From Candidatus Nanohaloarchaea archaeon (GTDB taxonomy: Archaea; Nanohalarchaeota; Nanosalinia; Nanosalinales; Nanosalinaceae), in NCBI GenBank assembly GCA_042218325.1, contig JBDGRE010000010.1, forward strand, positions 1-64,000: a stretch of DNA of 64,000 nucleotides. The letters are read 5' to 3'. The translations under genes and the position numbers were made by a program. Below the pieces are notes generated by a model. The model saw nothing but the letters and a program-made list of their open reading frames with translations, was not told where the DNA came from and did not search any database. Positions 3,090-58,925 of this stretch are shown here, one piece after another; the stretch's first letter is position 1; each line of letters starts with the position of its first letter.

Positions 3090-3827
3090 CTATTCCTCCT
3101 CCGCCTGGCTCTCAAGCCAGTCGATAAACGTAGTACGGTTTTTGTTCTTCTTCTCGGCCTCGAGAGCGGCGCTGTAATCCGGACTTTCGAGCTCTTGGAG
3201 CTGGTCCTTGGCGTCGCTGATTGTGCCGGAGACGATGTCGTCGTAGTCAGCCGTGGCTGCTTCGGCGGTTCCGTCCTCGCTGTCTTCTTCCTCTGCTTCA
3301 GTCTCCTCCTCTTCTACTTCTTCCGTCTCGATTTCCTCGGAGGCTTCTCCGCCCTGCATCTGCTGCATCATCTCGCCTTCCTCTTCTTCCTCGAGGGCTT
3401 CTTCCATCTCTTCTTCCTCGACGCCGATCTCTTCGACGTCCGATATCTCGTATTTCTCCAGCCTGCGCTCGTCCTCGATGTTGAGCGCCTGCACCTGCAG
3501 GTTGGAAGGCCTTAGAGCTTTCTCTCTCATGGTCCCGTCGACCTTCTCGTGCTCGATACCGTCGACGTAAACTTTCTCGGAGTCCCTGTCTATGTTGCTT
3601 ACGATCCCCGAGACACCGGAGTCGTCGCCGCGCATCACCTCGACGCGGTCCCCGGTCCTCAGTGAGATCGAGCGGGTGCCGAGCTCTTCTCTCAGCTCGG
3701 GCGAAACGTTCGCGGATAAAAGCTTATCTTTCACGTGCTGCGGAGCGTTATCCCTGTACTTCCTCTGCTTCGAAGGCTTCGTGGAAGAGTTCCAGTGCCT
3801 GCTCCAGTTATCAGTATCCTGCGTCAT
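3090..3827 (-). CDS. rpl24: 50S ribosomal protein L24 (uL24) with long acidic linker and extra C-terminal domain
   Basis: SKQRKYRDNAP, GDRVEVMRGD, RPSNL; about 120 aa longer than a typical uL24. Confidence 0.95.
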   Translation of the reverse strand: MTQDTDNWSRHWNSSTKPSKQRKYRDNAPQHVKDKLLSANVSPELREELGTRSISLRTGDRVEVMRGDDSGVSGIVSNIDRDSEKVYVDGIEHEKVDGTMREKALRPSNLQVQALNIEDERRLEKYEISDVEEIGVEEEEMEEALEEEEEGEMMQQMQGGEASEEIETEEVEEEETEAEEEDSEDGTAEAATADYDDIVSGTISDAKDQLQELESPDYSAALEAEKKNKNRTTFIDWLESQAEEE

Positions 3828-3831
3828 TATT

Positions 3832-4230
3832 TCAAACCACCTGCGATGCGATCTTGCCGATAGGGGAGAAGCGCTGGACGACCTCCTTTGCGATAGGCCC
3901 TCTGGTAACGCTTCCCTTCGGCAGCATGTTCTCCTCGACCAGTACAGCGGCGTTATCCTCGAACGCGATCCTCATGCCGTTCGGTCTCTGGTACTCCTTG
4001 GCCTGCCGAACGACGACGGCGTCGAACACCTGGTGCTTCACTTCCTGGTCTCCTTTCAGGACTTTTACAGTTACGATGTCGCCGACGCCAGCCGTTTCCC
4101 GGCGGCCCCTGCGACCTTTAGTATGTTTTACTCCGATAATCTCCAGCTTCTTCGCGCCGGAGTTGTCAGCGCACGTAAGCGATGCGCCCTTGTCGAGCGT
4201 CCGTGTGATGTTCGCTCCTACAGGTTTCAC
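3832..4230 (-). CDS. rpl14: 50S ribosomal protein L14 (uL14)
   Basis: CADNSGAK, FEDNAAVLV, GPIAKEV. Confidence 0.97.
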   Translation of the reverse strand: MKPVGANITRTLDKGASLTCADNSGAKKLEIIGVKHTKGRRGRRETAGVGDIVTVKVLKGDQEVKHQVFDAVVVRQAKEYQRPNGMRIAFEDNAAVLVEENMLPKGSVTRGPIAKEVVQRFSPIGKIASQVV

Positions 4231-4547
4231 TCAGGGTTCACCTCTACCACTACGGCGCTTTTCGTCTTGGAAATCGGCCGCGTCTCGACGACCTTCACCT
4301 GGTCTCCTTTTTTGATGTCGATACAGCCTGGTACATGCACTGAGATCTTCGTGTTACGCCGCTCGTAACGCTCGTACTTCGGAACGCTTTCCGAGTACTC
4401 CCATCGAACGGTCGCGGACTTCTCCATCTTCGTGGACTGTACCTCTCCGACGAAAGTGCTGCCTCTCACAGGTAGCTCTCCGTGGAAGGGACAGTTCTTG
4501 TCCTCGCATTCCTGTTCCGGTGCCTCGACTGCAAGTCCTGGTGACAT
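4227..4547 (-). CDS. rps17: 30S ribosomal protein S17 (uS17)
   Basis: CEDKNCPFHG, KYERYERR, ETRPISKTK; ATG at 4547 with TTTAAA about 30 nt upstream. Confidence 0.95.
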   Translation of the reverse strand: MSPGLAVEAPEQECEDKNCPFHGELPVRGSTFVGEVQSTKMEKSATVRWEYSESVPKYERYERRNTKISVHVPGCIDIKKGDQVKVVETRPISKTKSAVVVEVNPE

Positions 4548-4611
4548 CGTGTATTGATTCCTCGCGACGAACTCTTTTAAACCGACTGTAGCCAAGGCTT
4601 AACTCTTACGC

Positions 4612-4790
4612 GGACACGCGGGTTTTAGTATAGACTTGCGTGCCGCTCAGAGCCTGTACGAAAGATGTTTACTCCCTGCCGGGAGGTATGAACTTTCGTA
4701 CATGCTCTCCAGAGTATCGTTCTCGGGCCCGACACCGGGACAAATGGCGTCGAACCGTCGCCCGACTCCAGGCGGTCAAAGCTCGTATCC
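4612..4790 (-). ncRNA. Candidate structured ncRNA (~179 nt, three-way junction), identity unknown
   Basis: Ends pair (GGAUACG/CGUGUCC); two long internal arms; TTTTAAAG box at 4815-4808, 25 nt upstream. Confidence 0.6.
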
Positions 4791-4839
4791 CAAGAAGTAA
4801 AAACAAACTTTAAAACGGGTGCTGCCAACTTCTGTCCTT

Positions 4840-5448
4840 TCAACCTTCCAGTTTTTCGTCTTCGGGTTCTCCGGCCTGCCGTGAAAGCTCGTTTACCCTG
4901 TTCGCCACTTCTGCCGGGTCGGGGACGTACTCCAGTTCAGCGCTGGCGGAATGGATGCCGGTGTCGATGTCAACAGTTCCCACGTCGAACAGGTTGCCGA
5001 TGAAACCTTTGCTGTATTCCGCATCGCGGATGTCCTTGAGAAGGGTCGAGTCGACTTTCTCACCCATGAACTTCCTGTACTTGATTATCCTTTCATCAGT
5101 TCCGGAGTACTGGACAGTCATCGCGAACACGGCGAGACTGCTCAGAACCATGTAGAGGATGGGTAGTAGGAAACCCACTGCTGCGCCGAGGATCGCTGTG
5201 TTCCTGCTCTGTTCTATCAGCAAGAAGGCGCCTGCAGCCGTGAGGGGCGCTACGAAAATCCCGAACAGCAACCCTACCGGGCTCTTGACGATTCCAGAGG
5301 CCGCCATCGCAAGCTTGTCAGGATTTACAGTCCACTGTATCTCCTCATCGCCATGGACGCTGTTTTCCAGCCCTTCGGAAGCTTCCGATGTCTGCATACG
5401 TTCCAGCTCTCCGGAGAAGAATTCGTCTTTTGATAGCTTAATAACCAT
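4840..5448 (-). CDS. Membrane protein with bacterial-type PH (bPH_2-like) domain
   Basis: Two hydrophobic segments, then Y..TDERII..KFMG...GNLFDVGTVDIDT pattern. Confidence 0.7.
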   Translation of the reverse strand: MVIKLSKDEFFSGELERMQTSEASEGLENSVHGDEEIQWTVNPDKLAMAASGIVKSPVGLLFGIFVAPLTAAGAFLLIEQSRNTAILGAAVGFLLPILYMVLSSLAVFAMTVQYSGTDERIIKYRKFMGEKVDSTLLKDIRDAEYSKGFIGNLFDVGTVDIDTGIHSASAELEYVPDPAEVANRVNELSRQAGEPEDEKLEG

Positions 5449-5926
5449 GGTCTGGGCCGGTCTCTATAGAGTAGTCCCGGATTTCCTCTCCGTCTTCATC
5501 GAAGTAAAATTCGGCTCTCAGTCTCTTGCCATCCAGCACGTCCGGCAGCCAGTAGGGGTCGTCCGTCCACATCTGGTCGTATGGTATATCGTCTACATCG
5601 AACCATTCCGGCCTCACCTCCTCTGTCTCCTGATGTTCTCCCTGATGGTCGTCGGAGAGGAATACGTGGACTCTCTGGAACGGGTCGCCGCCGAAGAAGA
5701 ACTCCAGTTCGGCCACCTTCTCGGGTTCTACCGGTACCGTCTCTGTCTCTTCGCGGTGTTCCCGGATAGCGGCCTCCCGGATTGTTTCGCCGTCCTCGAC
5801 CTTTCATCCCGGGCCGTTGTACTTCCCTGCGCCGTGCCCCTGTTTCTTCTCTATGAGAAGGATCTCGTCGCCTTCCAGGACGTAAGAGAGTGTCACCTCT
5901 GTCCAGTCCCCGGTCATATCTTCCAT
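5438..5926 (-). pseudogene. NUDT1/MutT-like 8-oxo-dGTPase interrupted by in-frame TGA at 5804-5806
   Basis: MEDMTGDWTEVTLSYVLEGDEILLIEKKQGHGAGKYNGPG*KVEDGETIREAAIREHREE...IPYDQMWTDDPYWLP. Confidence 0.8.
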
Positions 5927-5951: not shown

Positions 5952-6236
5952 TCAGTCGGCGTACTCCCACTTGCCGGGGAGCTTCATCCCGGCGCGTTCC
6001 TCGGGCCGCTTCGCGATGAGCTCGCCGTCGACTTTCACTTTTCCTCCCGAGGGCAGGGTGAATCTGAAGATAGCGGATTTTTTCTCGACCCGCCTGTCTT
6101 CTATCCTGAGCATCGAACGGGTCTCGTCGAGCACCTCTCCCGAGATGCCTACCTGGCCCTCGTCCTCCGCCTCTACGACCTCGCATTCGAGGCCTATGAG
6201 TTCGTGCTTCGGAAGGTTTTCGGGTGTTATAGGCAT
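5952..6236 (-). CDS. rnp1: RNase P protein component 1 (Rpp29/Pop4)
   Basis: HELIGL..V, G.VLDETR, VDGELIAKRPEER. Confidence 0.92.
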   Translation of the reverse strand: MPITPENLPKHELIGLECEVVEAEDEGQVGISGEVLDETRSMLRIEDRRVEKKSAIFRFTLPSGGKVKVDGELIAKRPEERAGMKLPGKWEYAD

Positions 6237-58684: not shown

Positions 58685-58850
58685 ACAGTTTCCCGCGGTT
58701 TCAAACCTTAATAAACTATAGAGAACCGGTAGTATGTAATACATGAAAGGTCTGAAAGGTGTTATAGCGCACTCTTGTATTACATTGCTGGGACTGTCCC
58801 GGGAGCCGAGTTTAAAAGAATGACAGGGAATCTTGGATTTATCACTTAAC

Positions 58851-58925
58851 GGCGGGGTGGTGTAGCTCGGACTATCATCGTGCCTTTGGGAGGCATGGAC
58901 CCCGGTTCAAATCCGGGCCCTGCCA
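58851..58925 (+). tRNA. tRNA-Pro (UGG)
   Basis: Acceptor GGCGGGG/CCCTGCC, anticodon arm GTGCC-TTTGGGA-GGCAT, T arm CCCGG-TTCAAAT-CCGGG. Confidence 0.95.

Follow-up and report, generated by a model that had tools for sequence, protein, structure and literature searches.

The minus strand of a 64,000-nucleotide (nt) stretch of Candidatus Nanohaloarchaea archaeon (contig JBDGRE010000010.1, positions 1-64,000; hereafter the window) carries at positions 4612-4790 a structured RNA element directly ahead of rps17, within a same-strand cluster of ribosomal-protein genes that also encodes S8. We predict that this element is a previously undescribed archaeal autoregulatory leader for S8, and judging from the sequence we give this reading a probability of roughly 0.65. 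The base of its first arm most likely copies the S8 docking site of helix 21 in 16S ribosomal RNA (rRNA) and is therefore treated here as a putative S8 site. The original prediction, made from the letters of this DNA alone, had described an unannotated structured RNA of about 179 nt with its own TATA box.

Conservation upstream of rps17

Homologues were sought in 70 genomes, 50 of the window's family and 20 of four other families in the same order, which is the whole phylum in the genome collection searched. Within the 50 family genomes, BLASTN recovered the 5' half of the element (arm 1 and promoter) in five other genomes, with no matches for the 3' extension or for arm 2. R1, a covariance model built on arm 1 (71 nt), gave one full-length match in each of 21 genomes, with E values from 7.5e-20 to 8.8e-6. 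Shortened matches were found in genome G038 and at a second locus of genome G037, where a GCGA loop replaces the upper arm. All 23 covariance-model matches lie directly upstream of rps17, which supplies the homologues that the original prediction had named, together with covariation, as its check.

rps17 itself was located in 60 of the 70 genomes, 42 of which belong to the window's family. From genomes without a model match, 38 rps17 upstream regions, three of them cut by contig ends, were examined by unfiltered model scoring, a motif pattern and reading. This procedure added 14 copies, 10 from model and motif pattern and 4 from the pattern and reading by eye. They comprise minimal hairpins in genera g3, g10, g14, g17 and g18, and a variant in g15. 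The total is 37 copies in 36 of the 50 family genomes; of the 42 family genomes with a located rps17, 36 thus have the element. All copies are placed directly upstream of rps17, with one per rps17 locus. The element was not seen in three complete rps17 upstream regions (g11, g16 and g19).

Outside the family, R1 gave no matches in the 20 genomes of the four other families, and neither the unfiltered model nor the pattern detected the element in any of 18 rps17 upstream regions of families f2, f4 and f5. In these three families only 20-60 nt separate the end of rpp29 from the S17 match, too little to accommodate a leader. Among the matches listed by a pattern scan of a public collection, most of them chance bacterial matches, at least four records are named nanohaloarchaea. 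From these searches the element appears to be confined to one nanohaloarchaeal family. Genome G037 has two rps17 loci (contigs C53 and C1; L046 and L056), one with a long and one with a minimal leader; these could represent two strains binned together or a real duplication.

In the 23-row alignment, whose fitting to the covariance model favours the pairing figures, 91.6% of the cells are paired compared with 75.3% in shuffles. Compensatory changes occur at 16 of the 22 pairs, none of 500 shuffles reaches any observed measure, and a control with slid partners gave at most 50% paired. Five pairs never vary in the 23 rows (A-U, G-C, U-A, C-G and G-C) and flank an invariant bulged U-A, while 16 of the remaining 17 pairs show compensatory changes.

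Across the relatives only arm 1 and a hairpin with the motif GAAAACC are conserved. The long forms of arm 1 share a tandem G-A internal loop (5' YGAN / 3' NGAG) and a 9-nt loop with UUGU. In genera g3, g14, g15, g17 and g18 the arm is cut to a minimal hairpin of about 25-40 nt (about 35 nt in some genera), which retains the S8-like core alone. GAAAACC, often as GAAAACCGCUUGU, is located in arm 2 of nearly all copies and is diverged in the window genome. Its pairing partner in many copies is a GUUUUUC U-tract on the 3' side.

Likeness to the S8 site of 16S rRNA

In the primary S8 site, seven conserved nucleotides form an internal loop within a helix. The core of the site comprises the pairs G597-C643, U598-A640 and A596-U644 with bulged U641 and A642, and it contains the triples (G597-C643)-U641 and A595-(A596-U644). 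The same element occurs in the spc messenger RNA (mRNA) of E. coli (PMC4176348, here and below as far as the available part of that paper goes).

In the window, the 5' half of the S8-like core (4763-4768, minus strand) reads G4768 A4767 G4766 U4765 C4764 G4763 and corresponds to A595 A596 G597 U598 C599 of 16S rRNA plus one pair. The 3' half (4712-4719, minus strand) reads C4719 G4718 A4717 U4716 A4715 C4714 U4713 C4712 and corresponds to G639 A640 U641 A642 C643 U644. In this mapping, which is our own alignment, A4767-U4713 takes the place of A596-U644, G4766-C4714 that of G597-C643, U4765-A4717 that of U598-A640 and C4764-G4718 that of C599-G639, with U4716 and A4715 as the bulged U641 and A642. 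The genome of the window (1.07 Mb) contains no 16S and 23S rRNA genes in its 35 contigs; the rRNAs of a same-genus genome were therefore used for comparison. The leader core 5'-(R)AGUCG...CGAUACU(Y)-3' shares its letters with same-genus helix 21 (UAAGUCUG...CGGAUACUG; GUAAGUCUGCUG...CAGCGGAUACUGCAUGG). The arrangement is also that of helix 21 in the complex with M. jannaschii S8 (PDB 1I6U), with A-U and G-C below an N-A bulge and U-A and C-G above it.

The letters A, G, U, C and G of the 5' half are unchanged in all 23 covariance-model matches, as is CGAUACU of the 3' half, in which U4716 and A4715 form the bulge. When all 37 leaders are considered, the equivalent of A642 is always A, as the bulged A is in helix 21, and the equivalent of U641 is U in 32, A in 3, G in 1 and C in 1. 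The variation among leaders thus seems to fall where the literature allows it, with 642 fixed and 641 free. On the operon strand of the window no second S8-like site was found, including at the start of rpl5, and the sole exact core match is 4768-4713.

Fold of the element

The predicted structured RNA is well supported by folding. The minus strand of 4612-4790 reaches -74.8 kcal/mol (z -4.47), and none of 200 shuffles folds as well (RNAfold). Since the plus strand folds nearly equally (z -4.26), the folding energy cannot choose the strand. The minus strand was assigned because of the gene context and because G-U pairs are frequent among the aligned homologues (at one pair, 17 of 23 rows have U-G), in agreement with the earlier argument from G-U pairs.

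Each stem named in the original prediction could be located in the minus-strand sequence, and the minimum-energy structure of RNAfold shows the terminal stem, arm 2 and the upper hairpin of arm 1. Not all of these stems are shared by relatives. The terminal stem, GGAUACG (4790-4784) with CGUGUCC (4618-4612), is present in the window but is not conserved, even in the same-genus genome. Likewise, the proposed UCGGGC/GCCCGA stem is possible in the window, but covariation among the relatives backs UCG/CGA plus an upper stem of 11 bp instead.

Arm 1 (4709-4771, minus; R1 match 4709-4779, 87.1 bits) consists of a lower stem, the S8-like core, the tandem G-A internal loop, the 11-bp upper stem and the 9-nt loop AUUUGUCCC (4745-4737). 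The helix that closes the junction has its 5' strand CCGC at 4772-4775 (minus), within the conserved block ACCGCYUGRAG, which the relatives pair with a distal complementary element. Its 3' strand GCGG at 4643-4646 (minus) is the counterpart of the relatives' distal CAAGYGG / CURGCGG. Arm 2 (4649-4708, minus) is a long hairpin made of AGAGC, UGUACGAAAG and a CUCCC-GGCA-GGGAG tip, and it is conserved in position but not in sequence. The stretch 4648-4612 is specific to the window genome and unconserved in relatives; it includes the lineage-specific 3' extension (4612-4642, minus), which holds the CGUGUCC of the terminal stem.

Promoters and continuity with rps17

Both TATA boxes claimed for this locus were confirmed as TATA-like sequences. 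The first, TTTTAAAG at 4815-4808 (minus), lies ahead of the element and is preceded by CCC. Relatives carry a CCCTTTTAAAG block at the same distance, and the box is predicted to be the promoter of the leader. The second, TTTAAAAG at 4581-4574 (minus), lies 27 nt before the ATG of rps17 at 4547 and corresponds to a GGTTTAAAAG block conserved in many relatives. A promoter function is predicted for this box as well.

The usual archaeal spacing between TATA box and start was used to place transcription starts. By this geometry the leader would start near 4786-4783 (minus), in an ATACGAG block, for which relatives show TWAC[AG] at an equal distance; a TTAC/ATAC block is conserved about 20 nt after the TATA box in relatives. 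With such a start the RNA would lack the greater part of the terminal stem's 5' strand. The consensus TTTWAAAR has three sites in the 64 kb, two of which flank the element and the third of which precedes tRNA-Pro (transfer RNA). Their number is not above chance (2.46 expected), so that it is the placement that matters. The third box, again TTTAAAAG, is at 58811-58818 (plus), 33 nt before tRNA-Pro (58851-58925); within the window the exact box marks only the leader, rps17 and one tRNA gene.

The second TATA box is absent in genera g3, g14, g15, g17 and g18 and in genome G019. In these cases the element runs without interruption into the AGGUGA Shine-Dalgarno sequence and the start of rps17 and hence is part of the 5' untranslated region (UTR). 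For the window genome, where the second box intervenes, we infer the same continuity. No T-run terminator is present between 4612 and 4581, and transcripts from the upstream promoter are consequently expected to read through into rps17. The second promoter probably adds a nearly leaderless, unregulated rps17 mRNA, and the operon of the window genome would then give two mRNAs, one regulated with a long leader and one unregulated and leaderless.

The same boxes could instead delimit a small RNA that stands alone, either acting in trans or representing a new class, with its own promoter and an end before the promoter of rps17; its place in the operon would then be fortuitous. Two strong TATA-like boxes flank the element in the window genome and many relatives, the downstream one would yield a leaderless rps17 mRNA, and no Rfam family matches. 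We nevertheless regard this explanation as quite unlikely, in view of the lineages in which the element is continuous with the rps17 start, the missing terminator and the fixed position of all 37 copies. The suggestion of a new RNA class therefore holds in part: the element belongs to no Rfam family and no description of it was found in the open-access literature, but the evidence favours a cis-acting leader over a separate RNA.

An intermediate case is also conceivable for the lineages that, like the window genome, gained a second promoter with a leaderless or short-leader rps17 mRNA. There a former leader may have become detached from its mRNA and would now sense S8 as an independent RNA, either buffering free S8 as a decoy or blocking the downstream promoter by read-through that depends on S8. 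Genomes of a single genus differ in the second box, which G020 and G021 have and G019 lacks, so that the transition would be recent and repeated. Although we consider this unlikely, it would mean that a cis leader has been caught turning into a trans-acting or interference RNA.

Proposed mechanism

As an S8-responsive leader, the element would be transcribed from its own promoter (TATA box 4815-4808) into the rps17-rpl14-rpl24-rps4e-rpl5-rps14-rps8-rpl6... operon. S8 in excess over free 16S rRNA would bind the hairpin of arm 1. This binding would pay the folding cost of the hairpin against a long-range pairing of ACCGCYUGRAG with a distal element near the start of rps17. The refolded leader would lower the expression of rps17 and of the coupled downstream genes, including rps8. 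Binding could lead to repression via the initiation of translation, via early termination at the U-tracts that many copies have after arm 2, or via decay of the mRNA. S8 control in the window genome would be limited to transcripts from the upstream promoter, if the second promoter is active.

A competing fold was seen in thermodynamic modelling. In full-length folds of 17 contiguous leaders, the ACCGCYUGRAG strand is part of a long-range helix with an element near the Shine-Dalgarno sequence, and forcing the hairpin costs 0.6-8.5 kcal/mol over the free minimum-energy fold in 16 of the 17. The distal pairings differ by genus (CCGCUUGGAG / CUUCAAGYGG; CCGCUGGAAG / UUCURGCGG; GCUGAGAC / GUCUCRGC; CCUGCUGAAAG / UUUUCAGCAGG), and a distal partner of the 5' strand that outdoes 95% of shuffles exists in 13 of 37 leaders. 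In the window genome the distal complement is only CCGC/GCGG, which is not better than shuffles. Such competing long-range folds would fit a refolding driven by a protein. A switch that sequesters the Shine-Dalgarno sequence found no support as the specific device, since modelling of the 17 leaders gave no consistent change in accessibility.

Several observations weigh against the S8 reading. The invariance counts are partly circular for the 14 copies that were found with the motif pattern or by eye. In helix 21 A595 is unpaired, whereas the leaders have a covarying Watson-Crick pair at this position (G-C in 14, A-U in 7 and A.C in 2 of 23). The triple with an unpaired A595 is thus missing and six of the seven conserved loop nucleotides are kept. 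The odd-numbered loop that is lost here helps A642 to stack (PMC4176348). The equivalent of G597 is C in 6 of the 37 leaders (g3 and g14), which gives C.C for the G-C of the rRNA, and above the core the helix has a sequence unrelated to that of helix 21. When R1 was run on the same-genus 16S and 23S rRNAs, helix 21 ranked only 7 of 12 (5.9 bits, E 3.9). A count over both strands of the genome (2.15 Mb) gave 190 cases of AGUC...GAUACU inside 100 nt, of which 8 have loose flanking helices. The core motif alone is therefore not rare, and the argument rests on its selective invariance, its position and the content of the operon. Forcing the hairpin shifts the unpaired probability of the Shine-Dalgarno sequence by more than 0.15 in only 3 of the 17 leaders, and in opposite directions. 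Finally, because of the second promoter in the window genome and many relatives, much of the rps17 mRNA may lack the leader.

Part of the imperfect likeness would be expected for an operator, as autoregulation would need a site weaker than the rRNA. The mRNA site of E. coli does bind S8 more weakly than the rRNA (PMC3616713, in its available part).

Alternative ligands and known RNA classes

The leader might be bound by another protein of the operon (S17, L14, L24, S4e, L5, S14...) or by L7Ae at the tandem G-A loop. Indeed, S8 leaves the internal loop and the UUGU-containing 9-nt loop of the long forms unexplained, as well as the GAAAACC of arm 2. However, the minimal forms lose the G-A loop and the 9-nt loop and retain the S8-like core. 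GAAAACC(GCUUGU) has no counterpart in same-genus 16S or 23S rRNA with up to 2 mismatches. A K-turn is defined by a 3-nt bulge next to tandem G-A pairs. By eye the tandem G-A loop lacks such a bulge in either orientation, and a K-turn site for L7Ae was accordingly rejected. A ligand other than S8 is thus improbable.

Little more can be said for a structured 5' UTR that has no protein ligand and serves stability, processing or the folding of the transcript, with the likeness to helix 21 as a coincidence. It would account for the shortness of the motif and its 190 occurrences, for the R1 model's lack of a significant helix 21 match and for the missing A595 feature. It would not account for the fact that, across 21 genera, precisely the S8-core letters stay strictly invariant amid freely covarying neighbouring pairs, nor for minimal forms that retain just this core in front of an operon that encodes S8. 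We hold such a coincidence to be very unlikely.

The RNA classes to which the original prediction had pointed do not apply. In the whole window Rfam gave no matches at gathering thresholds. The proposed search with relaxed thresholds (region 4400-5000, E up to 10) returned nothing on the element and two chance matches outside it, and the leaders of six relatives gave no matches at E up to 1. Specifically, the models for signal recognition particle (SRP) RNA (RF01857), 5S rRNA (RF00001) and RNase P RNA (RF00373) do not match the element. The genome has its own matches elsewhere, which were sought as had been proposed for SRP and 5S RNAs and which refute these three leads. A full-length match to the SRP RNA model is at C1:175410-175678 (94.3 bits against a cut-off of 96.5 bits) and has a normal helix 8 (GGCCAGGCCCUGACGGGAGCAGCC). 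The 5S gene is at C1:198881-198996 (68.8 bits, over the cut-off). The RNase P RNA model has a full-length match at C24:14570-14927 (48.6-55.2 bits against 84 bits) with the conserved GAGGAAAGUCC and ACAGAA blocks. The three-way-junction shape and the tip that recalls SRP helix 8 had suggested such an identity, but the tip, although present in arm 2, is not conserved in sequence among the relatives. A diverged SRP RNA, 5S rRNA or RNase P RNA can practically be dismissed.

The RNase P RNA match carries large insertions. Both this RNA and the SRP RNA fall below their Rfam cut-offs, so that standard annotation would miss them. The same contig C24 carries, some 260 nt downstream of the gene for RNase P RNA, a tRNA gene (L002:2109-2276; Rfam tRNA, 48.5 bits) with a 95-nt insertion in its anticodon loop.

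Further candidates were tried and rejected. A tRNA, split or with an intron, does not fit, as ARAGORN found only tRNA-Pro in the window and the 7-bp terminal stem is not conserved. Guide RNAs of the H/ACA type have an ACA/ANA box after the pocket hairpin, and those of the C/D type have the boxes RUGAUGA (C) and CUGA (D). By eye, no conserved ANA follows arm 1 and no C box is present, and there is no Rfam snoRNA match.

A small protein-coding gene is next to impossible: although open reading frames (ORFs) of 45-72 aa overlap the element, among them a 72-aa ORF at 4625-4843, the frames anchored on the core are open in at most 8 of 23 homologues (including one empty row, L041, counted by artefact), the homologue lengths, taken modulo 3, cover all three classes, the 72-aa ORF begins ahead of the TATA box, and the substitutions are compensatory in helices.

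The rps17 locus

Pfam assigns the window's minus-strand ribosomal-protein gene cluster as follows. L29, SUI1 and the RNase P protein p29 (5952-6236) come first. Between p29 and the element two ORFs are inserted on the minus strand, one at 5438-5716 (92 aa, without a Pfam family) and one at 4840-5448, whose product has a bPH_2 domain and hydrophobic stretches. By contrast, in the five closest relatives that BLAST found, the end of rpp29 stands directly before the leader promoter. Downstream of the element, S17, L14, L24, S4e, L5, S14, S8, L6, L32e and L19e follow on the minus strand. rps17 (4227-4547, minus; Ribosomal_S17, E 2.5e-22) is the first gene behind the leader, and rps8 (1227-1616, minus; Ribosomal_S8, E 1.7e-25), which encodes the proposed ligand, is the seventh gene of the same-strand cluster.

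The S8 protein of the window (129 aa) has M. jannaschii S8, 1i6u_A, as its closest solved chain (E 4.9e-39), with an end-to-end alignment. In this alignment residue 123 is Q where M. jannaschii has R124, a residue that contacts G597 and U598 (PMC4176348). The product of rpl24 (3090-3827, minus) has 245 aa, about twice the usual length, owing to a long and very acidic C-terminal extension with runs of E and D.

Relation to known S8 regulation and significance

In bacteria, the use of rRNA mimicry for feedback on ribosomal-protein operons is textbook knowledge; for archaea few such cases are documented. In E. coli and Vibrio, an S8 operator that mimics helix 21 is documented at the start of rplE (PMC3616713, PMC10931766; both cited here from the parts available). 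The E. coli spc operator follows the same logic as the leader, with a helix 21 look-alike in the mRNA of the S8 operon, a variable distal stem and a conserved core. Other features differ. The E. coli operator overlaps the start codon of rplE, the third cistron, and blocks initiation directly. The leader core is absent at the start of rpl5. It stands 80-240 nt upstream of rps17, the first cistron, as part of a separate leader that has its own promoter. The leader architecture, a three-way junction or a minimal hairpin, is unlike that of the bacterial operator. Moreover, the bacterial site keeps an A595-type triple, at least in the sources as available, whereas position 595 is paired in the leaders. 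As there is no sequence homology to the bacterial operator beyond the core, the leader most likely arose independently, within one nanohaloarchaeal family.

For archaea, the cited sources contain the L1 case as experimental and those of S15, eL15 and L4 as predicted (PMC3616713, PMC10931766, PMC7247131, in the parts available). L1 of Methanococcus vannielii (MvaL1) represses its own operon via an rRNA-like site in the mRNA (PMC3616713, PMC10931766), which is self-repression of the same type with a different protein, a different rRNA site (in 23S rRNA) and a different operon. Eckert and Weinberg (2020) described 20 new r-leaders, among them the archaeal S15, eL15 and L4 motifs (PMC7247131). Like the present element, these are conserved structured RNAs upstream of ribosomal-protein genes that were found by comparative genomics. 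None of them is for S8 or stands before rps17; in the available text of that paper 'S17' occurs 0 times and 'protein S8' in the reference list only. A 2024 review, in the part available, names S8 regulation as known only for E. coli and Vibrio and the phylogenetic study of spc regulation as not advanced (PMC10931766). In the open-access literature searched we found no description of an archaeal S8 leader or of a nanohaloarchaeal non-coding RNA of this kind.

The kind of element, an S8 operator that mimics helix 21, is therefore known. What would be new is its occurrence in the archaeal domain, its position, its architecture and the paired position 595. If S8 binds, the element would be the first archaeal S8 operator, placed before rps17 together with a new promoter that splits the S10-spc supercluster. 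The leaders would also form a natural series from a 65-nt arm down to a hairpin of about 25 nt, with A595 paired and G597 replaced by C in two genera, and thus a mutational data set for S8-RNA recognition. For the organisms themselves, such a leader would bear on how the components of the ribosome are kept in balance in the very small genomes of DPANN archaea.

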